Source of the DNA: Nanobdellota archaeon
GTDB lineage: Archaea; Nanobdellota; Nanobdellia; Woesearchaeales; JAHIVG01
Direction of reading: 5' to 3'
DNA: 64,000 nucleotides
NCBI GenBank assembly: GCA_043806015.1
Contig: JAZDHH010000008.1
Span: 37,695 to 101,694 of the forward strand
The first letter of the stretch is position 1; each line of letters begins with the position of its first letter. Below, piece by piece: positions 1,979 through 14,395 of the stretch. Below the pieces are notes generated by a model. The model was not told where the DNA came from. It was given only the letters and a program-made list of their open reading frames with translations, and made no database searches. The position numbers and the translations under genes are program-made.

Positions 1979-4900
1979 CTATTTTATCTTCACGACCTTG
2001 ACGCGGAAATGAAGCGTCTTGTTGGCCAAGGGGTGGCTGCCGGTGTATCCCTCGCTCGTATCGACCGCGAAGGTCTTCTCCTCGTCGAGCTGCATGCCCA
2101 GGACGGCCTTATCGAAGCCTGGGATGACCTGGCCCTGGCCGAGCGTGAACGATAAATCGTTGTTGGCATACGCCGAGAAGTCTGCGGAAAGGGAATCCTG
2201 GTCCCATCCCTCGATGCTCGAGTCGAACACGGTCTGGTTGTCGAAGAAGCCGACATAGTCGAGCGTCACCGTGTCTCCTGTCTTGGCTTCGGTCTTGATC
2301 ACGAACTCGTCCATGACGATCGGGTCGCCGCCTTTCCAGTCTACCTTGTAGGTGTAGATGTCCGTGCCGGTGAAATGGGTCTCGTGAAGGAAAGAATTGA
2401 AATGCTTGAGGCCGTGGCCGCGGTAGAAGAACATGACCGTGAACATGCTGGCGGTGAGCTCTGGCTGCATGAAGATGGTCGCATAGCCTTCGCCGCGTGG
2501 CACCAGGGCGACCCCATACGGGAAATCGCTGGCATAGGTCTTCTTGTGCACGCCGTCCTTGTCCGCGTAGGCGAACGCCTTCGGCTTGGCAAGGCCTTGC
2601 GGGCTCATCACGGACGGCTCCATCGATGTGAGGTTCACGGTGAGGCCGTTGCCGCAGTCGGCGAGTTCGCCGGAGACGCTGCACGATCCGAGGCCGGAGG
2701 CGAAGTTGGGCCAGGGCGCGATCCAGGCGTTGCCTTCCTCATCGGTTGAGAGGCTCTGCACCTCGAAATAGATCTGCTCAGCATAATCCTCAGGGAAGCC
2801 GAAACTCTGTTCCATGAACCTCACTGCTTCATCCTTGTCCATGCTCCTGGCTTTCTGGTAGATGTCCGCATGGGTGAAGTTCCAGGAGCCGAAATGGGCC
2901 CAGACGCCCGCCTTGCCTATCAGGTCCTCGCTGGCGATGAAGTAGTCCGCCGGCGGGTCGCAATGCGTGTACTGCAGCACCTTGTTGGCGTTTACCGGGC
3001 CGAACCTCGTCGTGAGATAGGCCAGGGCTTCCGCCTTGTCCAGCTCGAAGATGGCATACAGGGTGTCTGTCGAGTTGTGGAAGTCATTCGTGATGGAGAA
3101 AAGCGTGTCGAAGGCGTTGTTGGCCCCGCAGTCGAGCATGCGCAGGATGCCGACCGCTTGCTCTTCATTGTCGGTCAGCAGCGTCTTGCCGATCCAGTGC
3201 GCCTGCGGCCGGTCTTGCGTGGTGCCGTCGAAGGTCACCGGGCGGTCTGCCAACGCCTTGAAATGGTGGCCGAAGTCCCACCAGGAGTTGATGACCGTGT
3301 TCTCCGGCCCCGGCTTCGAGTCGTCCCTGATGGTCGTGAGCGTCTTGTACCAGGCCTGGTTGATGATGGGCACGTCGCTCCGTGCCATTTGGTAGCTCGC
3401 GCGCGCCGGCGCGATCAGGATGATGCCGCAGAGCAGGACCAGGATGGTGATGGCTGCGACGCGGGGGAGCTTCAGCTCCTTGGCGAGATAGTTGCCGACG
3501 CCGCTGATGATCGCTGCGACGCACACGCCGAAGGCGATGCTGAACGCGGGGGAGAGCATCAGGGTGAAGCGGACGCCCTTGATGGTCGCGTAGATCGTGG
3601 ACACGAACCAGATGGTGAGCAGGATGGCGTACTTCGGGTCGATGGACGTGTCCTTGAGGTAGATGACAGAAAGGAACGTGGCGGCGATGGGCAGGCAGAG
3701 GAGCGCCAGGTAGGTGATAGCGGACATCTGCAGCATGCCGTCGGTGCTAAGCAGCAGGAACCATGCGATGGAGAAGAGGATGAGCCCCCAGCGGACACCG
3801 GCGCGCTTGACCTTCATGGCCATGGTGAGCGTGATGCCGAGCAGCGCGAGGACATAGACGAGCTTGCCGCCGAACTGCGCGACGACCGAGCTGGCATTCC
3901 CCGGATTCAGCTCGGCGACGGTCGTCAGGACGTTGGGCCAGAGCGTCCCCCGGATGGGAGCCTTGAGGTTCGTGATGCCGAAGAACTGCTTCGGGAACGT
4001 CAGGGCGGTATTGCCCTCGCCGAAGAGGCTTGCGATAGCGACGGTCACGAGGAAAAAGACAGCGAGGACAACAGCGGCGTTGACGATGGCCGGCGTGCGG
4101 ACGAAATGGCCAATGCCGCCCTTGAGCTCTTTGCGATGCGCCACCATGAAGAAGCCAAGGTAGGCGAGGCTTGCCAGAACCAGGAAGCCGAGGATGAACC
4201 ACCAGCCGCCCCAGGCGAAGGCGAAGAGCCCGGTGAGGCCGCCCGCCAGCGCGCTGAAGATGAGACGTGGCAAGGGCTTTTTCGCGTCCATGGCCATCAG
4301 GTAGACCCAGGTGATCGCGGCGCTGAAGAACACGACCCACGCGTCAGAGTCCGCGTGGCCCATGAGCGTGCGGTTCACGAAGGGGATGGTCACCGCGGCG
4401 AAGGTCGCGGCGAAGAGGCCGCCGACGTTCCCGGCGATCTTGCGGCCGATCAGGAAGATGAAGAGGACGGCGAGCGCTGAGACGATAAGCGGATAGTAGG
4501 CGATGGAGTCTAGAAGGGTAACCGACGGGTCGAAGAGCTTGACGACGGGGAAGAGCCCGGCGAGGAAGTAGGCATGCATCATGTCCGAGGGCATCTGCTT
4601 GCCGACCGGGGCGAGCATGTGGTCATCCCACCAGAAGCCGTCCTTGATGGTGTCTCCGGGATAGCCGTGCTTGTTCACATTCTTCGCGTAGCGGTACCAG
4701 AAGTAGGGGTCGATGTCCGGGATGAAATAGTGGCCGTCCTCGTCCTGGTAGGTCTGCCGGAAGAACTGGGCGGTCTGCCGTATGCCCTCCTTCATGTTGT
4801 CGGCGTTCTGCGCCTTGAAGCGGGTGAATTCGGCGTCGATGATGCTATTCTTGTTCTCGTCCGGCAGGTTGGGGTACTGGTTGTTGATCGCGCCAACGAT

Positions 4901-5194
4901 CTGGTTGCGGTAGTAGTTATCGACGCTCTGCCGTGCCCAGTCGTCCGCGACAGGAAGGTTGTGATTCCCGGCGCGGATCATGATGCTGAGAACAATGGGG
5001 ATGAGGATGAGCAGCACAACGCTGAAACGCTTGAAGAACTTGCCGGCGTCCTTCCAGTTGATGGAGATCTCGTCGCCCTCTTCCGGTTCCTTGGTCTTCT
5101 CGGCAGTGGGATGGTGCTCGACGTGCTGCTTCTTTGGTTTTTTCTTGAAGAGCTTGGTGATGCCGCTCAGATCGATAGTATCATCTTCGTCCAT
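1979..5194 (-). CDS. aglB: Archaeal oligosaccharyltransferase AglB (STT3 family) fused to a C-terminal FKBP-type peptidyl-prolyl isomerase domain
   Basis: 1071 aa with about 13 TM helices, then the WWDYG-type motif NSWWDFGHH (nt ~3266-3289). The last 99 aa (nt 1982-2278) read GDTVTLDYVGFF..VFDSS...FTLGQGQVIPGFDKAVLGMQLDEEKTF...LANKTLHFRVKVVKI, the FKBP signature. Confidence 0.9.
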   Translation of the reverse strand: MDEDDTIDLSGITKLFKKKPKKQHVEHHPTAEKTKEPEEGDEISINWKDAGKFFKRFSVVLLILIPIVLSIMIRAGNHNLPVADDWARQSVDNYYRNQIVGAINNQYPNLPDENKNSIIDAEFTRFKAQNADNMKEGIRQTAQFFRQTYQDEDGHYFIPDIDPYFWYRYAKNVNKHGYPGDTIKDGFWWDDHMLAPVGKQMPSDMMHAYFLAGLFPVVKLFDPSVTLLDSIAYYPLIVSALAVLFIFLIGRKIAGNVGGLFAATFAAVTIPFVNRTLMGHADSDAWVVFFSAAITWVYLMAMDAKKPLPRLIFSALAGGLTGLFAFAWGGWWFILGFLVLASLAYLGFFMVAHRKELKGGIGHFVRTPAIVNAAVVLAVFFLVTVAIASLFGEGNTALTFPKQFFGITNLKAPIRGTLWPNVLTTVAELNPGNASSVVAQFGGKLVYVLALLGITLTMAMKVKRAGVRWGLILFSIAWFLLLSTDGMLQMSAITYLALLCLPIAATFLSVIYLKDTSIDPKYAILLTIWFVSTIYATIKGVRFTLMLSPAFSIAFGVCVAAIISGVGNYLAKELKLPRVAAITILVLLCGIILIAPARASYQMARSDVPIINQAWYKTLTTIRDDSKPGPENTVINSWWDFGHHFKALADRPVTFDGTTQDRPQAHWIGKTLLTDNEEQAVGILRMLDCGANNAFDTLFSITNDFHNSTDTLYAIFELDKAEALAYLTTRFGPVNANKVLQYTHCDPPADYFIASEDLIGKAGVWAHFGSWNFTHADIYQKARSMDKDEAVRFMEQSFGFPEDYAEQIYFEVQSLSTDEEGNAWIAPWPNFASGLGSCSVSGELADCGNGLTVNLTSMEPSVMSPQGLAKPKAFAYADKDGVHKKTYASDFPYGVALVPRGEGYATIFMQPELTASMFTVMFFYRGHGLKHFNSFLHETHFTGTDIYTYKVDWKGGDPIVMDEFVIKTEAKTGDTVTLDYVGFFDNQTVFDSSIEGWDQDSLSADFSAYANNDLSFTLGQGQVIPGFDKAVLGMQLDEEKTFAVDTSEGYTGSHPLANKTLHFRVKVVKIK

Positions 5195-5226
5195 AAACCA
5201 TCCCTCGTTGCGAGGCGTTGGCGCTA

Positions 5227-5235
5227 TTATATAAA
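5227..5235 (-). promoter_or_regulatory. TATA-like box upstream of aglB
   Basis: Minus-strand TTTATATAA about 35 nt upstream of the ATG at 5194. Confidence 0.4.
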
Positions 5236-5237
5236 GA

Positions 5238-6308
5238 TTACCATGCCTTCGGCAGGAACGTCAGGAATCCAGGTTCGGCCGCGATGATCCCCAGGAGAGC
5301 GGAAAACGCGTTGTCGCGGTCGCTTTTCTCGACGATGGAGCGGACGCGCGGCTTCGCCGCGAGCTGGACGAGCCGGTCGAAATCCTGCTCCAGGAAGCGG
5401 CTCATGGCGCGCTGGACCCTCGTGTGCGCCCACAGCTGCAGGCCGAGATGGCGCCGCCAGAGCAGGGGATAGCTCCTTTTTTCGATGATCGCTTTCGAGG
5501 CGAGCGCCGCGCTGCCCATCCCGGTGATGATACCGCCACCGGTCGAGGCCTTGACCATGGCGGCAGCGTCGCCCACGAGATACGTGTGCCCTATCTGGGT
5601 CTTCACGCCGGACCGATGCAAGGGGATGAGGCCGCCCTGCTTCTCCATGACCTCAGCGTCTGGGAATTCCTGCCGGAGCAGGGAATCGAGCAGGCTGTGG
5701 CTCTTGTTTTCCGCCATAACGCCGATGCGCGCCATCGTTTTGCTTTCCGGCACCATCCACGCGAAAAGGCCGCAGCGCTTTCCCAGGAAGACGGTGTAGC
5801 GATGGGGATGATCAGCAGCAAGCTTGGCCCGCACCTGGGCCCCGACGAGGCAGCGGTTGCCCTGCCGGAACACGTGCTTTGCCACCGCCGAGAGCGGCCC
5901 GTCAGCGCCGATGAGGATGCCCTCCGGCTTGGAACTTTTCTTGCCGCCGTGGATAAGGCCGTCAGCATAACGGTGCCCAAGACGGAATCTCGCCCCCTCG
6001 TTTTTCGCGAGGCGTGCCAGGTATTTGTCAAAGGCGTCGCGCCGCAGGATGATCTCTGGCGTGCGGAGCCTGAACAGGGCTTGATGCCTCGCGCTTTTAA
6101 CGAAGACTTCGTCGATAGAGTTGGCGACGCACGGCTTCGGTAGTTTGACCAGCTTGGTGATGTTCTGCGTCACGACCCCCGTGCATTGCACCGGCATGCC
6201 GATGCTTGCATGATCCTCGAAGACATCGACCGAGAATCCGGCTTTGGCAAGGAGCAGGGCGGCATAGCTGCCGGAAGGACCGGCGCCGATTATTGTGACC
6301 TTGACCAT
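5238..6308 (-). CDS. Geranylgeranyl reductase family FAD-dependent oxidoreductase (digeranylgeranylglycerophospholipid reductase-like)
   Basis: MVKVTIIGAGPSGSYAALLLAKAGFSVDVFE is a Rossmann GxGxxG motif, and ...YLVGDAAAMVKASTGGGI is present. The start was moved to the ATG at 6308 (codon 45 of the ORF), directly before the FAD fold. An AT-rich box lies about 25 nt upstream. Confidence 0.85.
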   Translation of the reverse strand: MVKVTIIGAGPSGSYAALLLAKAGFSVDVFEDHASIGMPVQCTGVVTQNITKLVKLPKPCVANSIDEVFVKSARHQALFRLRTPEIILRRDAFDKYLARLAKNEGARFRLGHRYADGLIHGGKKSSKPEGILIGADGPLSAVAKHVFRQGNRCLVGAQVRAKLAADHPHRYTVFLGKRCGLFAWMVPESKTMARIGVMAENKSHSLLDSLLRQEFPDAEVMEKQGGLIPLHRSGVKTQIGHTYLVGDAAAMVKASTGGGIITGMGSAALASKAIIEKRSYPLLWRRHLGLQLWAHTRVQRAMSRFLEQDFDRLVQLAAKPRVRSIVEKSDRDNAFSALLGIIAAEPGFLTFLPKAW

Positions 6309-6371
6309 CTCCCCTAGAAAGCTCGGATTATTAAAAAGGGTTTCGGAATGTTTTTCCTTTATATTCCTCGA

Positions 6372-6380
6372 GAGGCGGGG
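6372..6380. repeat. Target-site duplication, left copy (GAGGCGGGG)
   Basis: An identical 9-mer is found at 11844-11852, immediately outside the terminal inverted repeats. Confidence 0.7.
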
Positions 6381-6542
6381 GGCTTTGCACATAAATCGAG
6401 AATTGCACATTTTTAAAGGCTGTTTGCATATTATTACCATTCAGATTCTTTCATCAGACAATGACATCACAACTGTCTTGAGAGTTCCGAAAGGCTTATT
6501 AAGTACCCCCACGTCCCATGCCTTGCGAAATCGTAAAGCAGC

Positions 6543-7199
6543 ATGAGTACCTTCAACGACTTGGTCATTGAGTCAGCCGAGCACCGGCTGATGATCATTC
6601 TGAAAGCTGTCCGAGAACACGAAGGGCTCCACTACGGCGACCTACAGCATGTCGTTGAAAAGGAGAAGCCGAGAGGTCTAAGTAGCACCACGTTCTGGCG
6701 AACCCTTAAGGATTGCAAGAACATGCAGCTCGTGAAAAATGGCACAGGCCACCGCCTCACTCAGGTCGGAGAACAATTTCTCAATGGGATAAACAAGCGC
6801 GAGGCGTACCTCAACGTGCCATTGTTCAGGGAGTGCTACGATGCTAATCCCGACGTCGATGACTACGAGAAGATCAGGAATTGGTTTCTGCCTAGGCTCA
6901 AGGACGCAGAGGAGCGAATGAGAGGCACAATCATTCGCCGCTACTTCGAGGGATTATACCCAAACATCAAGATTGGAAAGGGTCAGCGCGTCAACATCAA
7001 GCCAACTATTTCAGACTTCATCAACAATAATATCCATTCGCCAACGGCCTCTCCAAAGTCGGAAGGTACGACTGTATATGCTTTCTTGCGAAGCCATAAT
7101 CTCGATCATCAGCAAATGCTCGACGTGCTTAAGCTAGTCGGCGAGGTGAACGAAAAAGACCGGCCTGAGATACTCAGGCAACTAATGCAGAAAATGTAG
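6543..7199 (+). CDS. Winged-helix (wHTH) DNA-binding protein, function unknown (transposon cargo)
   Basis: 218 aa. The N-terminal ~85 aa (LMIILKAVREHEGLHYGDLQHVV...TFWRTLKDCKNMQLV) look like a MarR/ArsR-type wHTH. Confidence 0.55.
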   Translation: MSTFNDLVIESAEHRLMIILKAVREHEGLHYGDLQHVVEKEKPRGLSSTTFWRTLKDCKNMQLVKNGTGHRLTQVGEQFLNGINKREAYLNVPLFRECYDANPDVDDYEKIRNWFLPRLKDAEERMRGTIIRRYFEGLYPNIKIGKGQRVNIKPTISDFINNNIHSPTASPKSEGTTVYAFLRSHNLDHQQMLDVLKLVGEVNEKDRPEILRQLMQKM

Positions 7200-7632
7200 A
7201 TGATGGAGAGAGAATGGGAGTTCCCCGACACGATCCTCTGAGGCGTCGCCAAGGAGGGGCGTCCAACCCAGGTTGGACCATGTCAAATTCCCGTTCCTCC
7301 AACATCCTTGATGAAGACTGAGCATTGAGGGGAGCAACGTGTCCCTCTGACTCTGCCTGCCGTGGAAGGTGGGCAGGCACTCAGGAGTGGAATACGCCCT
7401 CATGCTCCTTCATTAGCTTAAGGGGCGACAATGCGCAGGTTGCGAAATCGATAAAGCAAGAAGCCTTATCACCTGCGCCGCCGCTTAAGCGTATAAACCT
7501 ATACTAGGTTATAAAGCTTTTTAAGAGGTCTTTTGTGTGGTATAATTAACAAATTCGATTAAATGAGAGGTAAAATGACCATTTAACTGCAGGTTGAAAA
7601 GTTATTAATATAGAATATCCTTTTTCAGAAGA

Positions 7633-7818
7633 ATGAAGGAAAAAAAACATAATGAAGTTAAAACCAAACGGATAATGGTCGTAAATGGAAGGCAAATATG
7701 TCCTAGATGCGGTGAAAAACTTAATATAGAAAAAACCACTTTTAAATTTTATAAGATGACTAACGATTATAAACATTCCTTTTATAGATGCTCAAAGTGT
7801 GGTTTTTTCCAACTATGA
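7633..7818 (+). CDS. Small zinc-ribbon protein
   Basis: 61 aa with CPRC...CSKC cysteine pairs, in an AT-rich context. Confidence 0.4.
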   Translation: MKEKKHNEVKTKRIMVVNGRQICPRCGEKLNIEKTTFKFYKMTNDYKHSFYRCSKCGFFQL

Positions 7819-7854
7819 TTATACTATTTCTAGTAAATAAGTGACTTAGTTGAG

Positions 7855-7917
7855 TTTGTCCTTCATTTCAGACTTTGTCCGGTATGTCATCTTTGTCCGA
7901 GAAGAAGTAATCTGTCC
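7855..7917. repeat. Four iteron-like direct repeats TTTGTCC(G) spaced 18-19 nt apart
   Basis: Copies at 7855-7861, 7874-7880, 7892-7898 and 7911-7917 (the last reads TCTGTCC), between two convergent cargo genes. Confidence 0.6.
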
Positions 7918-7958
7918 GAAAAGTTATTCAGGCGACTTTAATTGGTGGGACGTGAGCG

Positions 7959-8435
7959 TTAGCGTCGCACGTGGCTTTGGAGGGGGGAGGTTTCTATGGT
8001 TTTTTTAAGCAAAGAGGCTATGCTTCGTGATGGAGAAAACCTCCAATCTGATGGAATCTCGGGAAAGTCCATTAATGAAAGTCTATCTCCGGTGACCATT
8101 CTTCCGAAAGAAAAACGCCAACGTTGTAGATTGATAAGTGTCGCATAGAGAAAAAGTTCATCATCGTCCATTTCTTCTTTTGGAACCAAAACAGTGAGAC
8201 CACTTCCCCCATTACCTCTGGGCAAGAATGGAGGGTTTTGGACTGTTGCCTCACAAAATGCTGATACACAAATGCATTTATTTCGGAAAATCTTTTCTTT
8301 AGGAAGAGGGGTGATATATCCGACTACACCATTGTTTACGAAGCTATTGGATACAAAAGGCATTGTTCCAGTTTCGTGGTCGTCAAATCCTTTTGAACGT
8401 GCGTTGAGAACATCGAATCTTGTAGGTAATTTCAT
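7959..8435 (-). CDS. Single target-recognition-domain protein (HsdS half-subunit-like), translationally coupled to the methyltransferase
   Basis: The ATG at 8435 overlaps the methyltransferase TGA (ATGA at 8435-8432). GTMPFVSNSFVNNGVVGYI......LTVLVPKEEMDDDELFLYATLINLQRW resembles type I S-subunit TRDs. Confidence 0.5.
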   Translation of the reverse strand: MKLPTRFDVLNARSKGFDDHETGTMPFVSNSFVNNGVVGYITPLPKEKIFRNKCICVSAFCEATVQNPPFLPRGNGGSGLTVLVPKEEMDDDELFLYATLINLQRWRFSFGRMVTGDRLSLMDFPEIPSDWRFSPSRSIASLLKKTIETSPLQSHVRR

Positions 8436-10345
8436 TGTGCTCCACCCATCTTTCTGACCACAAAGCAAGCATAATCTATTAGGCGTTCATTCATTTCCTT
8501 TCCAAGAATTTCTGTGCTTAATTGATTATCGGGCATATAAACTTCAGGAACAAGCTCAAATAATGGGCTATTGAAATCCACAGGGCAGGCATAGCAGATT
8601 CGCGGAACCTTCCGAACAGATATGTTCTGATTTTCTATGAATGATTTAAGCAATTCCGTATACGTTTCAAAATCGTTCGGTTCCTCAGATGAAGGAACTC
8701 TTTTTCCTTTCTTTTTAATGGATCCATCTCGTAGCAATCGTAACCATAACACCTTTTGTTGTCTAGGATGAGGAACACCCTTTTTTACAAATATTCCTAT
8801 TGTTTCGACAGCCACAGGATAAAACAATTCGGGAGGGAATGTAATGACCGACAATAGGGTGTTATGCTCTAATAATTCAGATAATCGCCAGTTCTTATCT
8901 TCTCCTCCCTCAACCATGACAGATACTGGCAATACGCTAAAAAGGATGCATCTATCCTGCATTTGCTCCAACGCGTGCTGAATGAATTTATACTCTTTTT
9001 CATCGTTTTTCTTGAGAGCAAAGGGAGGATTCATTAACACTTTCGTAGCGCCAGGACTTCTAACCCTCGGCAGGGAATCATTATTAAACAACTGGGCGCT
9101 TAACCTCCCGCCAACTGTTTTCGCTATAAGTGATTTTGAAAAGCAGTTTCCCTCCGTGATATTATTTTTTCCGTCTCCACGAAATATCATATTTACTATT
9201 GCTAATGCAGCCACTTCGGGTTCTTGTTCTACGCCAAATAGACCATTATTCTTGAAATATTCTACGTCATCAGAACGAGCGGTTTTTCTTGCATTGTCGA
9301 AAGCCGCAACGAGAAATCCTCCAGTTCCGCAAGTAGGGTCAAAAACAACATCACGATGCGATACGTTCAAGATGCTCGCCGCGAATCGCGTTATGTGTCT
9401 GGGTGTCAGGACTATACCTATTTCTTTCGCACCGTTTCCATATTTCAGGAACACCTCGTAGAAGCTGCCTAATACGTCTGTTCCTGAGTTCATAGCAGAA
9501 CGTATATTGAGGTTTTCTAACTCAAGAATAGTTTTCACTAACGCATTTTTAAATTTGATGTGGTTATCTTGACTTGGGGGGAGAGCAATTTTTATGCAAT
9601 CGAAAAACTCTTGTTTTCTATTTCTTATTAGTATGTTCTCTGCTCGGGAATTAATTTCTTGAATCAATACTCGCGGAGCGGCATCAACATTCGGACGAGT
9701 ATCATCTACCATTGAAAGAAGCAATGCTGCCATTACGCGAGCGCGTTGGTTTTTGTTAATTGCTCCAATATGAAGTATTTTGTTTATCTCTTCTGCTGCA
9801 CGTAAGAATAACTGTTCATCAATAGGCAGATCCTCTATTTCAGGGGAGTTTGCTTCGAGTATTAGGCGTGCGAGTGTTGGTGAAACGAAACCTGTTATCT
9901 CTTTACCATTGATTGTTATTGTGTGATATGTTCCGTTTTTCAAGAATTTACTCTTGACAAGAAAGCCGTCTGTTGAGTTACCAGCGACACCAGATATTAT
10001 TCTTGCTTTCAATATTCTACTCGCGTTAATCTTTCCGGCATAATCGTTTTCCGCCTCGGTAAGTGCCTGTGAAATCTGATCTTTATTTCTTTTCGCTTCA
10101 ATTACATACAACTCTGATTCTGTAATCTTGACGATGTTCTCTGGATGCGCTCTTACCAAGAAACGTTTTATCTCTTCATTGTCCAAACATTCTGTTTGAG
10201 TATATACCTGCCCCGCCGCTACCCTGTTAGGATTTTTAATGTTCCATCCTTGAATTGCTAAATATTCCTTGATGAACGCGTAGGCATCAACTTCCGAGTT
10301 TCTCGCTCGTGGCATGGGTATCACGGGAATATTTTCAAGGGGCAA
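8432..10345 (-). CDS. Fused PD-(D/E)XK nuclease-like domain plus N6-adenine DNA methyltransferase (type IIG / type I-like R-M enzyme)
   Basis: 637 aa. The N-terminus reads ...HPENIVKITESELYVIEAKRN (E...ExK nuclease motif). AdoMet motif I is VFDPTCGTGGFLV and catalytic motif IV is VLMNPPF. Confidence 0.8.
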   Translation of the reverse strand: MPLENIPVIPMPRARNSEVDAYAFIKEYLAIQGWNIKNPNRVAAGQVYTQTECLDNEEIKRFLVRAHPENIVKITESELYVIEAKRNKDQISQALTEAENDYAGKINASRILKARIISGVAGNSTDGFLVKSKFLKNGTYHTITINGKEITGFVSPTLARLILEANSPEIEDLPIDEQLFLRAAEEINKILHIGAINKNQRARVMAALLLSMVDDTRPNVDAAPRVLIQEINSRAENILIRNRKQEFFDCIKIALPPSQDNHIKFKNALVKTILELENLNIRSAMNSGTDVLGSFYEVFLKYGNGAKEIGIVLTPRHITRFAASILNVSHRDVVFDPTCGTGGFLVAAFDNARKTARSDDVEYFKNNGLFGVEQEPEVAALAIVNMIFRGDGKNNITEGNCFSKSLIAKTVGGRLSAQLFNNDSLPRVRSPGATKVLMNPPFALKKNDEKEYKFIQHALEQMQDRCILFSVLPVSVMVEGGEDKNWRLSELLEHNTLLSVITFPPELFYPVAVETIGIFVKKGVPHPRQQKVLWLRLLRDGSIKKKGKRVPSSEEPNDFETYTELLKSFIENQNISVRKVPRICYACPVDFNSPLFELVPEVYMPDNQLSTEILGKEMNERLIDYACFVVRKMGGAQ

Positions 10346-10556
10346 CTGAGGTATTTGAATGCTTTACGGTCGAATGTCTTGTGGTTATTTGACCAGTGAT
10401 TTCGGCTTTCTTATTGGATTTCCGGGGCATTTTCCAGTAGGGGCTCTTGCATTTTGGGCATATTATTGGTTCAGTCTCTTTTTTTGTTCTTGGTATCCAT
10501 TCGTGGCCACATCTTTCGCATTTGTAGCCTTCGACAGTGATCTTGATCTTTGCCAT
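10335..10556 (-). CDS. Zinc-ribbon protein heading the R-M-like operon
   Basis: 73 aa with CERCGHEW...CPKCKSPYW. It overlaps the methyltransferase start by 11 nt. Confidence 0.55.
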   Translation of the reverse strand: MAKIKITVEGYKCERCGHEWIPRTKKETEPIICPKCKSPYWKMPRKSNKKAEITGQITTRHSTVKHSNTSVAP

Positions 10557-10688
10557 GACTTTGACAATGTTTTACTCCTTTAAATAACTTTCTAAAGATT
10601 TGTTTATAAAGACTATTCTTTTATAAGTAATTTTACGATAAATTTATATATAAGTTATACTTATATAAGTTATACCTAACAAGGTAGG

Positions 10689-11831
10689 GTGATAAAGATT
10701 ATAAATCAGATCGCAATCACCGAACAAGAACTACACAGAAAGGTGAAAGAGCTATTAGGGTTAATAAACAATGTTGGAACGCCAGAACACAAAAAGCTGG
10801 CAGCAGAACTTCTTGATACATACACTGCTATAAACGCAAAGGGCAAAGAAAAAACCACTTACTCTCAGGAATGGCACGCCTACAATCAAGCCCAGCAGAA
10901 GGAGAAGATCATGCTGATGAGTCTCCTCGATGAGCTACTGAGCTACATTCGCTTTCCAGACAACAAAGGAATCGGTAGACACCCAATTTCATTGCGAGAT
11001 CGCATCTTCTATTTAGCAATGCAGTGCTATAACACGAAAAGCTCCCGGAGATGCATCAGCGACTTGGAAATAGCTAAAAAGCTTGGATACGTCACAAAAT
11101 CACCTCACTTTAATACAGTTCTAAAAATCCAAAAAGACCCCGAATTGACCAAGTACCTCATGCACCTGGTAAAAGTCGCAGGAATCCCCTTACAGAAGGT
11201 TGAGCACGACTTTGCCATCGATAGTTCTGGATTCTCCACGTCACAGTTCGGCAGGTGGTTCGATGTAAGATTAGGCTCTGAGAATGAAAAACGAACCTAC
11301 AAGAAAGTCCACCTGACCTGCGGAGTCATCACAAACATCATCACCGCTGTCAAAATTACGCCAGGAACTTGCAATGATTCCCCTGAACTCCCGAGCCTTG
11401 TCCGACAGACTATTGGTCTCTACAATGTTAGGGAGGTCAGCGCAGACAAAGGATACATCAGCGTCGAGAACCTTGAGACGATCTGGGACCTTGGCGCAAT
11501 CCCCTTTATCCCGTTCAAGGAGAATGTTCGGCAGAATAGCCGTCACGGAATGGTCTGGAAGAAGATGCTTAAGTTCTTCACCGAATATCCCGAAGAATTT
11601 TATCACCACTATCACAAACGGAGTAACGTAGAGAGCACCTTTAATATGCTCAAGCGCAAGTTTGGAAGCCATCTCCGAAGCAGATCTGAGGTTGGTCAAG
11701 CTAACGAGATTCTGGCAAAATGCCTTTGCCATAACCTCTGTGTCCTCATTCAAGAAGCTTTTGAACAAGGAATAGACCTAGATTTTAAAAAATGTGCAGA
11801 AATTGAGATTGCACATAATCAGACTATTTAA
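10689..11831 (+). CDS. DDE transposase, IS4/IS5 superfamily
   Basis: 380 aa with ...AIDSSGF..., ...VSADKGY... and the Y(2)R(3)E(6)K signature YHKRSNVESTFNMLK. GTG start. The stop codon lies inside IR-R. Confidence 0.9.
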   Translation: MIKIINQIAITEQELHRKVKELLGLINNVGTPEHKKLAAELLDTYTAINAKGKEKTTYSQEWHAYNQAQQKEKIMLMSLLDELLSYIRFPDNKGIGRHPISLRDRIFYLAMQCYNTKSSRRCISDLEIAKKLGYVTKSPHFNTVLKIQKDPELTKYLMHLVKVAGIPLQKVEHDFAIDSSGFSTSQFGRWFDVRLGSENEKRTYKKVHLTCGVITNIITAVKITPGTCNDSPELPSLVRQTIGLYNVREVSADKGYISVENLETIWDLGAIPFIPFKENVRQNSRHGMVWKKMLKFFTEYPEEFYHHYHKRSNVESTFNMLKRKFGSHLRSRSEVGQANEILAKCLCHNLCVLIQEAFEQGIDLDFKKCAEIEIAHNQTI

Positions 11832-11843
11832 ATGTGCAAAGCC

Positions 11844-11852
11844 GAGGCGGGG
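11844..11852. repeat. Target-site duplication, right copy (GAGGCGGGG)
   Basis: Identical to 6372-6380. Confidence 0.7.
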
Positions 11853-11923
11853 ATAAAATTTAAAAAGAAGTACTCATTTTAGGGTAGTAATAAAATATTC
11901 ACGCGAAGAGGGGGCGAAATAGC

Positions 11924-14395
11924 ATGGATACCATTGATGATCTTAACCCTATTGATCAAGGTCTTGAAGAGGCCCGAGGTCACTTCAGACGGCGTATGAG
12001 ATTTTCAGCTGCTGCCTCATTGTTCGCTTTTCTCCTTGGAACCGTGCCTCCCGCATTTGCGACCGCTCAACAGGATCCGCAGAAAAAGGAGCCGGTCGGC
12101 ACTACGACAATCATAAAAGGTGTCCCTCAAACATACGAAATCGGAACCGTCGAGGGGTCGATTCAAGCCGATGAGGTAGACGGGCTGAAGCCACTTTTTT
12201 ATGAATGGGTCACCCTTCCGGATAGTACCAAAGAGATGGCAATAGTGAGAGATCGGTATGGCCTCTTCAGGAGCGGCGACTTTAAGGCTCGCGGCACCTG
12301 GCTGGACAGCGCCGGTTTGCCTGATTCAGTCCGCGAGGGCGATGCGGAACAGGTTACCCTTCCCTACGCTCCTCGCGGGACGCCGAGGATTGTCTTTCGG
12401 AATCCGGCGATGACCGAAGCCATCCAGGACGGTTATCTCTCTGCGGAGGAAACGCGGGCGATTGGTCCTGGCCTCTACGCGGGTTATGAATCCTTCGATG
12501 CGAACCCGGATGCAGGTATCTTGCTGCCAGAATCGATTAGGCTGCTCATTCACATCACCGGAGAAGAATCTGTTTTGGAGCGGAAAGTGATTGCACGCGC
12601 TCGAGAGATTGCTGATACGCATAATACCCCGGAACATCCGTACCAGCCAGAAAAGCTGGAAAAACTTGGCGATTTGCTGCACGAATACGACCTGCTCCTG
12701 ACGGAACGCGACAGCATGAAGGTCGAAGTCGATCTAATCAAATTCAATGGCAAGGGGATGACCGCCGAGGAAGCGGAGAGACACATCGGCGACCTGGAAA
12801 AGCGCTTGGCCTCCTTGAGGGACGGGCTAAGTGAGAAAACGACGCTTTTATTGGATGAGTCTAGGCGCGTGAGTGAATATCTCACCACCTCAGGCAAAGG
12901 AAATGTTGATGTAACAAGTGGAACAATCGCTGGTGCGGACCTCTCGGTGAGACGCTTCATCGGGGGGAAGCCTCGATCGGTCACGCTCAGAGACAGCACG
13001 CAGCTCCATCTCTTGCCAGCACAACTCGCTACTTTGGGAGTGGAAGGAAGTTATGAGCCGGACAAATGGGCGGGTCTCGGGACCCTGGAGATCCCCTTTG
13101 GCAGTCCCTTGCTCGTAGTGAGCGGAGGTATCAGCGGTGTCTCTTCAGCATCTTCCTTCGCTCGCTCGCATGACGAGGAACAGGGATGGGTTTCGCAAAC
13201 GATTGATGAACAGGGATATCAAGATCAAAACATCTTGCGGCTCTTGGCAGGATTAGGGCTGCGATGGGGTCGCGTCGCAGGTGATGTGAAATATGTCCGC
13301 GTCGAGAGAAGTGATGAGATCCAGGCTATCACCGACATCTTAACGACGACCCCTCTCGGCTCGGAAAAACGTCGGTATCAAGTCATGCATGCTGAAGACA
13401 CGAATGCAAATATCGGCACAGGTTCATTGACCTTACAGGCGCTCCAGCACTTGTATTTGACCGGACGCCTCCGCCTCCAATCCATTGACGGAAGCGGTCT
13501 TCGCGAGCAAACGTCCATCGCAACCGGGCATGATTCCATCCCTAATGTGAACAAAGCCGATATGCGGCTAAAAGACGGCTCCAGGACAGGGTGGGGGGCA
13601 GAGTTGGGTTATCAGCCAGAGCATGCCCGCCTCTTGTTGGCCTATTTTTCGAGCAGGGGAGATGTTGAGCGTAATGAGAGATGGAATATCAATCCCCTTC
13701 AGGGGACTTTCACCACGAACCTTTGGATGCCGGAATATGCGCATGAATCAGTCGTCATGTCAGGTTCGTGTGACCTTGGCAATCTCCGCCTCCTGGCGCA
13801 CGGCTCCTATGACGATTCCGGGATTGACACCGAGCTGAGGATCGATGGCGAGCTCACTCGCCTCGCGCATGAAGGGACGATCCGACGTGCCGGCAATCTC
13901 GGCCTTTATTGGAGGATGACAGAAGATGTCGCATCCCTGCTCCAGGGGATTGAGCTGCGGAGGATAATGGACGATGACGAGCTCATCCAGGCGTTCACCG
14001 GCCGCCGCCCCCATGAGGATGTCTACCGTCCAGGCATGGGAACCGTCAGGGCGAGAGGGCTCTGGAGAACCGATCGGGCCTCAGAGCAAGATGCTATCGC
14101 GGCAACCAATCGATCGGACAAGATCGATGTCTATGGCGTAACAGTTGAGGGTCTCGTCCCGCTGGGACGGATCTCTTTGGGGACAGGTGCGACGTATGAA
14201 AAGGAAAAGAGGAAAACCGCAGGAGAGCCTCTTCATCCGCACAACGATACAGGATATCGCTTTCATATTGCTCCTGTCGGAGTCATCCCCGTCGGCCATC
14301 TGGATCTATTGTTGAAGGTCGATCTTCAATGGAACCCAGCATTCGATGGAAAACATAGCGGTGGTCGGATAAGTGTCGGTTACGGAGGTCGGTAA
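11924..14395 (+). CDS. Secreted or membrane-anchored hypothetical protein with a beta-strand-rich C-terminal half
   Basis: 823 aa. It has an N-terminal anchor/signal (FSAAASLFAFLLGTVPPAFATAQQ). A GAGGGGG SD-like element and an AT-rich box lie upstream. Its stop is 1 nt before the next gene's ATG. Confidence 0.7.
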   Translation: MDTIDDLNPIDQGLEEARGHFRRRMRFSAAASLFAFLLGTVPPAFATAQQDPQKKEPVGTTTIIKGVPQTYEIGTVEGSIQADEVDGLKPLFYEWVTLPDSTKEMAIVRDRYGLFRSGDFKARGTWLDSAGLPDSVREGDAEQVTLPYAPRGTPRIVFRNPAMTEAIQDGYLSAEETRAIGPGLYAGYESFDANPDAGILLPESIRLLIHITGEESVLERKVIARAREIADTHNTPEHPYQPEKLEKLGDLLHEYDLLLTERDSMKVEVDLIKFNGKGMTAEEAERHIGDLEKRLASLRDGLSEKTTLLLDESRRVSEYLTTSGKGNVDVTSGTIAGADLSVRRFIGGKPRSVTLRDSTQLHLLPAQLATLGVEGSYEPDKWAGLGTLEIPFGSPLLVVSGGISGVSSASSFARSHDEEQGWVSQTIDEQGYQDQNILRLLAGLGLRWGRVAGDVKYVRVERSDEIQAITDILTTTPLGSEKRRYQVMHAEDTNANIGTGSLTLQALQHLYLTGRLRLQSIDGSGLREQTSIATGHDSIPNVNKADMRLKDGSRTGWGAELGYQPEHARLLLAYFSSRGDVERNERWNINPLQGTFTTNLWMPEYAHESVVMSGSCDLGNLRLLAHGSYDDSGIDTELRIDGELTRLAHEGTIRRAGNLGLYWRMTEDVASLLQGIELRRIMDDDELIQAFTGRRPHEDVYRPGMGTVRARGLWRTDRASEQDAIAATNRSDKIDVYGVTVEGLVPLGRISLGTGATYEKEKRKTAGEPLHPHNDTGYRFHIAPVGVIPVGHLDLLLKVDLQWNPAFDGKHSGGRISVGYGGR

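Follow-up and report, generated by a model that had tools for sequence, protein, structure and literature searches.

Positions 6381-11843 of a 64,000-nucleotide stretch of Nanobdellota archaeon DNA (contig JAZDHH010000008.1, positions 37,695 to 101,694; this whole stretch is referred to below as the window) very probably form a single transposable unit, an IS903-like 'transporter IS' (tIS) of the IS5 family of insertion sequences (IS), in which the cargo lies between the left end and the transposase gene. The unit is bounded by a perfect pair of 12-base-pair (bp) inverted repeats (IRs), GGCTTTGCACAT at 6381-6392 and its reverse complement ATGTGCAAAGCC at 11832-11843, and is flanked by a 9-bp target-site duplication; a direct reading of the window agrees at every position with the IR coordinates and flanking direct repeats recorded in an initial annotation made from the sequence alone. 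The six encoded proteins include a single transposase and a restriction-modification (R-M) pair, and homologous cargo-bearing elements with the same end architecture are present in other genomes. The features that delimit the unit are as follows:

6372-6380, no strand: left target-site duplication, 9 bp, GAGGCGGGG, directly outside the IR
6381-6431, plus strand: left end (IRL), 12-bp terminal repeat GGCTTTGCACAT and two more direct boxes
10689-11831, plus strand: IS5-family DDE transposase, 380 amino acids (aa), apparently intact (Pfam, NCBIfam, catalytic residues)
11785-11843, minus strand: right end (IRR), 12-bp terminal repeat, inverted box and direct box
11844-11852, no strand: right target-site duplication, 9 bp, GAGGCGGGG, directly outside the IR

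Terminal repeats, boxes and transposase

The two IRs are the only exact copies of GGCTTTGCACAT in the 64 kb (copies with two mismatches occur at chance frequency), and the 9-mer GAGGCGGGG is likewise present twice in the window, each copy abutting an IR. When the whole window was scanned for any perfect 12-bp IR combined with a perfect 9-bp direct repeat at a spacing of 0.7-12 kb, this pair alone was recovered, and none appeared in 30 composition-preserving block shuffles. The proposal that the arrangement is the footprint of one transposition event is supported by its uniqueness in the window and its absence from the shuffles.

Each end contains further copies of a short box. The 8-mer TTGCACAT occurs six times in the window against 1.6 expected, with four of the six inside the two ends, and when one degenerate position is allowed the ends hold three boxes each and the neighbourhood of the transposase gene's 5' side holds none; the recurrence of this 8-mer subterminally at both ends, pointed out in the initial annotation, is thus borne out. 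At the left end the terminal box is followed by TTGCACAT at 6403 and TTGCATAT at 6424 (steps of 22 and 21 bp), while at the right end an inverted box occupies 11809-11816 and a direct one, CTGCACAT, occupies 11792-11799. This arrangement matches exactly the layout found across the family, in which left ends read GGCT-TTGCACAT-AAAT, six bases, YTGCACAT, thirteen bases, TTGCACAT, and right ends carry the terminal box, an inverted box ~27 bp inward and a direct box ~45 bp inward. The left-end layout with its 22/21-bp spacing is also seen in minimal IS copies (L082 and L083, described below) and in most relatives, and the right-end layout in the right ends of relatives. Across subfamilies the internal boxes change in step with the terminal sequence (GCACAT, GCCCAT, GTTTAA), and in those with the terminal sequence GGCTTTGCCCAT or GGCTTTGTTTAA the internal boxes are altered in parallel. 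The boxes are presumed transposase-binding sites, for which such co-variation is expected of cognate sites. Because the three-box architecture is shared with the minimal IS copies and the relatives, the distal left end of the window element, 4.3 kb from the transposase gene, is, judged by its layout, a genuine family left end.

The transposase gene abuts the right end so closely that its last codons (KKCAEIEIAH) overlap the right-end boxes and its stop codon lies one base before the terminal repeat. The protein matches Pfam DDE_Tnp_1 (PF01609; 4.7e-20), and its best NCBIfam model is NF033579 (IS5_2; 2.7e-35), although at 122 bits it falls below the cut-off of 140 for that model; IS5 models rank clearly first, ahead of IS1182, ISNCY, IS4 and IS982, and the protein looks like a divergent clade of the IS5 family rather than the annotated equivalog. 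D178, D253 and E315 are invariant in a 24-sequence alignment of transposases, and the YREK signature corresponds to Y308-R311-E315-K322 (YHKRSNVESTFNMLK at 308-322). The enzyme had been described at first as a single IS4/IS5-type transposase with a YREK motif at the right end; the single gene, its place and the signature stand, while IS4 does not, the family being IS5 and IS903-like. Its 3555 homologues come nearly all from DPANN archaea or from entries without an organism name, with a best identity of 73%, and the bacterial plasmid relatives are all below 30%.

With IS903 and IS903B the window element shares a DDE transposase with the YREK signature and a transposase gene running into the right end, and with IS903B it shares ends that begin GGCTTTG and continue ...TAAATCG (the GGCTTTGTTGAATAAATC type; GGCTTTGCACATAAATCG in the window element and GGCTTTGTTGAATAAATCG in IS903B). 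The copy of IS903B on plasmid Rts1 (1057 bp) has a duplication of the same length, 9 bp (GACACAACG). The two transposases are 23% identical over 175 aa of the catalytic core (pairwise E 6e-9), that of the window being ~60-70 aa longer. In contrast to IS903B, with 1057 bp and one gene, the minimal element of the present family has 1.5 kb and an extra small divergent gene, and unlike IS903 the family has three boxes per end, cargo in most detected members, and hosts that are mainly DPANN and other archaea. Taken together these comparisons place the element in the IS5 family as IS903-like, in a separate and apparently undescribed clade. Terminal sequences in two other relatives (L070 and L062) are GGCTTTGTTGAATAAT and GGCTTTGTTGCATAAG. 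An IS beside armA on a plasmid is not IS903 but a different IS5-family element.

In ISfinder usage, a tIS is an IS-like element with passenger genes between its IRs. The window element has in common with this class a single transposase, IRs that bound transposase and passengers together, a short target duplication, and the lack of a resolvase or second IS copy. Since the passengers and the one transposase gene lie inside one IR pair, the whole flanked by one target duplication, the element is in structure a tIS and not a composite or Tn3-type transposon. A composite transposon is ruled out by the single transposase gene and single pair of ends. Also ruled out is a Tn3-family unit transposon, which would have a large transposase of the Tn3 type with a resolvase or res site, IRs of ~38 bp and a duplication of 5 bp: none of the six proteins has such domains, and the IRs and the duplication measure 12 and 9 bp. 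Integration targeted to a tRNA gene is excluded, there being no tRNA genes in the window and no Rfam match over 5800-12400.

A family of related elements in other genomes

The surroundings of the transposase in the loci of close homologues and in 78 genome loci were scanned for a 12-bp IR combined with a 9-bp duplication. Other genomes contain about 26 related elements (1.8-10.9 kb) with the same end architecture; perfect 9-bp duplications flank 21 of them as listed below, or 22 in the overall tally (23 with the window element). The relatives with a duplication have a single transposase at the right end with 0.3-9 kb of unrelated genes to its left, and the transposases of the cargo-bearing elements are 40-73% identical to that of the window. 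Ends in the loci with a duplication are of the GGCTTTG type, with a different terminal sequence in L022. The elements, by locus, length and 9-bp duplication, are:

L002: 4732 bp, perfect
L005: 8470 bp, perfect
L006: 6938 bp, perfect
L010: 10914 bp, perfect
L012: 6075 bp, perfect
L013: 3900 bp, perfect
L014: 9101 bp, perfect
L016: 6397 bp, perfect
L018: 6627 bp, perfect
L019: 8454 bp, perfect
L020: 3401 bp, perfect
L022: 5419 bp, perfect
L023: 6285 bp, perfect
L024: 1802 bp, perfect
L043: 5459 bp, perfect
L049: 4026 bp, perfect
L053: 5466 bp, perfect
L075: 6754 bp, perfect
L078: 7619 bp, perfect
L079: 3665 bp, perfect
L084 (IMG/VR IMGVR_UViG_3300044684_000273): positions 4081-9505, 5425 bp, duplication CCTCCTCGA

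Both ends are also present in five more loci (L007, L008, L009, L011 and L025). The contigs of L007, L008 and L009 break off precisely at the right terminus, a pattern suggestive of assembly breaks induced by repeats, with ends present in several copies. L007 and L009 belong to one genome bin, and each encodes an MFS transporter; their identity is 89% across the transposase region and 88% across 1.56 kb of cargo. Because they represent two diverged copies of one element in one bin, the cargo-bearing unit has, on this comparison, multiplied. The contigs of L053 (5576 bp) and L079 (3774 bp) consist of the element and 54-55 bp of flank on each side, and on the left flanks of L016, L020 and L025 the contigs stop 54-56 bp outside the element ends. 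Flanks of ~55 bp are what a bubble in a k=55 assembly graph, with the empty site as its other branch, would leave, and on this view of assembler behaviour they suggest that the insertions are polymorphic in the population.

Minimal IS forms occur on two short contigs (L082, 137-1651, 1515 bp; L083, 1-1520, 1520 bp) and contain the left end, a divergent gene for a basic protein of 67-68 aa, and the transposase. The small protein is conserved (MVYLR.K.FKRKN...YYYLV.AKR...KYLGTADTIAKDYTELE) and has no Pfam match; its gene is absent from the cargo-bearing elements, and the position that it holds in the minimal IS is occupied in the window element by the cargo.

Passenger genes were surveyed in 100 proteins from 18 elements. 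The DNA methyltransferases among them comprise five of the C5-cytosine class, five matching N6_Mtase, three N4/N6 and two Dam-type enzymes; three cargo proteins match Eco57I/MmeI-type models and may overlap the N6_Mtase matches. Restriction enzymes are represented by NgoPII and MvaI/BcnI, with AIPR also present, and the element L043, on a 104-kb Methanomicrobia contig, encodes an 826-aa type IIG enzyme and an EVE-domain protein. Methyltransferase or R-M genes are carried by 15 of the 26 cargo-bearing elements (the window element included) in a raw count. The remaining cargo includes MFS or TrkH transporters, S8 proteases, NYN, ParB-ASCH and HTH-M78 proteins, and genes with no assigned function. 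The members in which ends and duplications are intact bear the labels Woese-, Nano-, Pace- and Aenigmatarchaeota, other labels being Methanomicrobia (L043), Thermoplasmatales (L020), Methanosarcinales (L016, L053), a Pyrinomonadaceae bacterium (L078) and a putative viral contig (L084).

The element L078 (3383-11001) lies with perfect ends and duplication on a contig of the Pyrinomonadaceae (Acidobacteriota) and contains HTH, DUF5343 and SecB-like genes along with part of an IS1-like transposase. GGCTTTG ends were not detectable for many other acidobacterial homologues of 45-50% identity. The putative viral contig of L084 is 44 kb long with flanks of 67% guanine plus cytosine (GC), and its element (60% GC, three-box ends, HTH/M78 cargo) adjoins a phage-type integrase gene; the transposase is 441 aa long (40% identity), carries an additional SWIM zinc finger and is ~770 bp away from its end of the element.

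At two loci, L001 and L003, the left end was not found in the locus DNA examined. L003 (1-9840) has ~10 kb of defence-type genes upstream of a 61%-identical transposase, encoding a 1239-aa MmeI-type enzyme, an M78 peptidase with DUF4411, SLFN/AlbA_2 and a PLD-helicase; this element may exceed 11 kb.

Passenger genes of the window element

The features between the left end and the transposase gene are:

6543-7199, plus strand: winged-helix DNA-binding protein, 218 aa, of a rare family (structure model)
7200-7632, no strand: spacer without a convincing gene, first 300 bp 55% GC, no Rfam match
7633-7818, plus strand: zinc-ribbon protein, 61 aa, with DUF7479 and Zn-ribbon matches below cut-offs
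7959-8468, minus strand: specificity (S) subunit-like protein, 169 aa, one target-recognition domain, weak family matches
8432-10345, minus strand: predicted fused R-M protein, 637 aa, N6-adenine methyltransferase and PD-ExK-like nuclease motif
10335-10556, minus strand: zinc-ribbon protein, 73 aa, divergent from the transposase gene and overlapping the R-M start by 11 nucleotides
10647-10676, plus strand: tandem 15-bp repeat TATATAAGTTATAC(T/C), within a spacer of 21% GC and 13 bp ahead of the start codon of the transposase gene

The 637-aa protein matches Pfam N6_Mtase (1.3e-31), the PADLOC type IIG REase-MTase model (5e-43, its best match) and, in the PDB, type I M subunits. Its methyltransferase domain is of the gamma N6-adenine class, with the motif DPTCGTGGF for binding of S-adenosylmethionine and NPPF439. 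Towards the N-terminus the protein has the motif PE78...E83-A-K85, in which the glutamate of ExK is invariant against homologues from five other elements, and the N-termini of the homologues in L075, L023, L053 and L043 match HSDR_N or HSDR_N_2 (HsdR nuclease families); a nuclease domain is predicted for the window protein from this motif alignment. The neighbouring 169-aa protein matches Methylase_S weakly (0.0022) and PADLOC Specificity_II at 0.001, and it aligns to both halves (E 3e-9 and 1e-8) of a 333-aa S protein of L019, which adjoins a homologous R-M gene and itself matches Methylase_S at 4e-26. The 169-aa protein is thus predicted to be a half-size specificity subunit, which would have to dimerise; half-size S subunits can function as dimers in type I systems.

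As a pair these proteins fit a BcgI-like (type IIB) or type IIG-plus-S system. BcgI-type and type IIG-plus-S enzymes likewise combine an N-terminal PD-ExK-type motif and a gamma-class N6-adenine methyltransferase (NPPF) in one polypeptide, and have, as is predicted for the window, a separate S protein with type-I-like recognition; the difference is that the putative window S protein has one recognition domain (169 aa) where theirs has two. What had been called an R-M-like defence module is accordingly kept as R-M and refined to a predicted BcgI-like fused nuclease-methylase with a single-domain specificity protein, while the 73-aa gene probably falls outside it. Homologues of this zinc-ribbon protein (55-69% identity) are encoded in L007, L009, L011 and L079, each time upstream of the transposase gene and divergent from it, and the cargo of these four elements differs from that of the window. 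Because it recurs beside the transposase with other cargo, the 73-aa gene is probably a semi-conserved accessory gene of the transposon and not an R-M controller; it would be co-transcribed with the R-M gene. The tandem repeat at 10647-10676 is a possible TATA-box or operator region.

The 61-aa zinc ribbon has no homologue in the related elements. The 218-aa protein has no match in Pfam, NCBIfam or PHROG and finds itself alone in a word-indexed search of 5.8 billion proteins, with 25 other representatives among 1.84 billion proteins. In its AlphaFold model (predicted local distance difference test, pLDDT, 88) an N-terminal winged helix-turn-helix superposes on the DNA-binding domain of CggR (root-mean-square deviation 2.0 Å, 69 columns), the E-value of the match being weak; the C-terminal domain is helical and without structural match. 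The protein is probably a regulator. A role for it as a core left-end gene was considered and set aside, there being no match to the left-end protein of L002 or to any cargo protein, and it is treated as cargo. A profile comparison with the 279-aa protein of L002 gave a weak hint (probability 27%).

Mean GC of the element is 42% between flanks of 57-60%, with 50-55% at 6543-7500, 31% at 7501-7958, and 40-44% over the R-M genes and transposase. The abrupt fall from flank level between the IRs was correctly noted, whereas the level of 35-40% assigned to it is replaced by a mean of 42% and a mosaic. The low GC of the element points to a recent acquisition from a low-GC donor. The 55%-GC stretch at 7200-7500, with no convincing reading frame or Rfam match, may be a gene remnant from an earlier host.

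Insertion site, alternative explanations and significance

When the element is removed, the flanks close to a 143-bp divergent intergenic region between a geranylgeranyl-reductase gene and the gene of an 823-aa protein, with AT-rich boxes, taken in the initial annotation for intact promoter boxes, remaining on both sides; the reconstructed empty site reads ...TATTCCTCGAGAGGCGGGGATAAAATTT.... We propose that the 380-aa DDE transposase would bind the three TTGCACAT-type boxes of each end, pair both ends, excise the element and join it to a target whose strands are cut 9 bp apart, and that repair of this stagger would yield the GAGGCGGGG duplication, the landing site in this case being the 143-bp region between the reductase and 823-aa protein genes. 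The R-M module would protect the host from viruses and would penalise loss of the element through post-segregational killing, favouring retention of the whole unit. The ends, the duplication, the gene content and the existence of homologous cargo-bearing elements are observations; cut-and-paste chemistry, binding of the boxes, R-M activity and present-day mobility are inferred.

Several observations weigh against the reading of 6381-11843 as one transposed and functional tIS. For the R-M pair, the N-terminus of the 637-aa protein is without significant Pfam or PDB match, its single-sequence structure model is unusable (pLDDT 36), and the specificity protein is half-size with a weak match to its family. 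The left 1.1 kb (50-55% GC) is unlike the rest in composition and the element is a mosaic. No second copy was found in the 64-kb window, by exact-protein look-ups or by a search for the left-end 30-mer in metagenome contigs, and a 24-mer across the reconstructed empty site is absent from the metagenome contig collection. There is no near relative of the host in the databases, the best reductase homologue being 41% identical. Among the related loci, L011 and L025 have matching ends without a duplication. Because no second copy was found, the case for mobility of this particular copy is made from its duplication and from analogy with its relatives.

One alternative is a simple IS of ~1.3-1.5 kb lying beside an unrelated genomic island, with the distal 12-mer and 9-bp repeat as a coincidence or as a remnant left by another copy. 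The family does include minimal forms of 1.5 kb and the left 1.1 kb does differ in GC from the rest, but neither a left end nor a box is present in the 4.3 kb upstream of the transposase, the left-end architecture at the distal end is complete with its three boxes, the 21-nucleotide arrangement of IR and duplication is unique and absent from the shuffles, and 21-22 relatives have the same layout with the cargo inside, all of which makes this explanation very unlikely. The initial annotation had already reported no second IR beside the transposase, and the window scan of the upstream DNA for an IR copy or a TTGCACAT box found neither; together with the genuine distal end and the same plan in relatives, the absent inner end supports its claim that the whole 5.46 kb is one mobile unit.

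It is improbable, though less so, that the whole unit transposed and is now a fossil or dependent on a transposase provided in trans, with an R-M module possibly inactive, for example through a truncated specificity gene. A single copy in 64 kb, none found elsewhere and an S protein of half size would agree with such a state; on the other hand, the transposase frame is full length with all catalytic residues, the perfect terminal repeats and duplication argue for a recent event, the R-M frame (637 aa) is as long as that of the L053 homologue (631 aa), and half-size S subunits can work as dimers, as is generally known for type I systems. The contrast between 42% GC in the element and 57-60% outside it, in what is evidently a metagenome-assembled contig of 132,786 bp, might further be taken to indicate that a low-GC DPANN transposon contig was misassembled into a high-GC one. 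Both junctions, however, carry the same direct 9-bp sequence, a target duplication that a chimera would not make, and with the element taken out a compact divergent intergenic region of 143 bp is recovered, AT-rich boxes lying on either side; misassembly is accordingly judged extremely unlikely. The preferred reading remains a single tIS bounded by the 12-bp IRs.

Exact-protein look-ups of the transposase, the R-M protein, the reductase and the 823-aa protein returned no other contig. Among the best homologues of the reductase every named one is from DPANN archaea, and on the basis of this one gene the host is probably a deep-branching, unusually GC-rich DPANN relative without sequenced sisters. 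The reductase's open reading frame (5238-6440) runs 132 bp beyond the likely start (6308), through the duplication and into the left end, and a gene caller could mistake it for a 400-aa fusion. The 823-aa protein to the right of the insertion (11924-14395) has no Pfam match and no exact copy elsewhere. Further to the left (1979-5194, minus strand) lies the gene of a 1071-aa membrane protein whose translation, by eye, resembles an oligosaccharyltransferase with an FKBP-like C-terminal part.

Bacteria are known to have passenger-carrying insertion sequences. The mobility of R-M systems is established, in most cases with no driver identified, and DPANN archaea have tiny genomes with few recognised mobile elements. 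In the literature we found no IS5/IS903-like tIS family described in archaea, nor one with predominantly R-M cargo, in a search that did not extend to ISfinder, where single members may be curated. According to a 2019 survey, no passenger-carrying transposon had been detected in archaea (PMC6563490), and a 2026 survey of archaeal IS does not mention passengers. Close precedents are the transposon-like R-M units of bacteria described by Furuta, Abe and Kobayashi in 2010, which have IRs and 8-bp duplications and no working transposase (PMC2853133); in a unit from Neisseria gonorrhoeae, 26-bp IRs and an 8-bp duplication bound a type IIG R-M gene, a homologue of S and a transposase that has decayed (PMC2853133). 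Like the window element, these units have R-M genes, with the same BcgI-like gene pair, inside IRs accompanied by a short target duplication, but they are isolated bacterial cases whose agent of mobility is not known, whereas the window element has an intact transposase, ends matching a defined IS family and many sister elements. The only archaeal integrated elements that we found named as cargo transposons in the literature are the Aloposons of Heimdallarchaeia, which integrate at tRNA genes and carry tandem giant genes (PMC8813620); with no IS5-type transposase, GGCTTTG ends or 9-bp duplication, they are unrelated to the window element. The kind of element is already known, and what is added is the family, with its IS903-like chassis, three-box ends and repeated R-M cargo in DPANN and other archaea.

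As a tentative and rather doubtful extension, the GGCTTTG-ended, 9-bp-duplicating elements may be a specialised vehicle for R-M and other defence or transport genes among DPANN archaea, and between DPANN and the lineages that they live on or beside. Should the labels be correct, symbiont, host, bacterial and viral genomes are linked by one transposon family, and if the proposal is true no earlier broad family of DNA transposons with cargo would have been described from archaea. In the window element all four components can be seen together: driver, ends, target duplication and cargo. The chassis recurs in combination with DNA methyltransferases of at least five classes, with several restriction enzymes, and with transporters and proteases. 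The compact three-box ends and the 380-aa transposase could serve as a cargo-delivery tool for archaea without genetic systems, and the family offers a concrete mechanism for the spread of defence genes in DPANN archaea.

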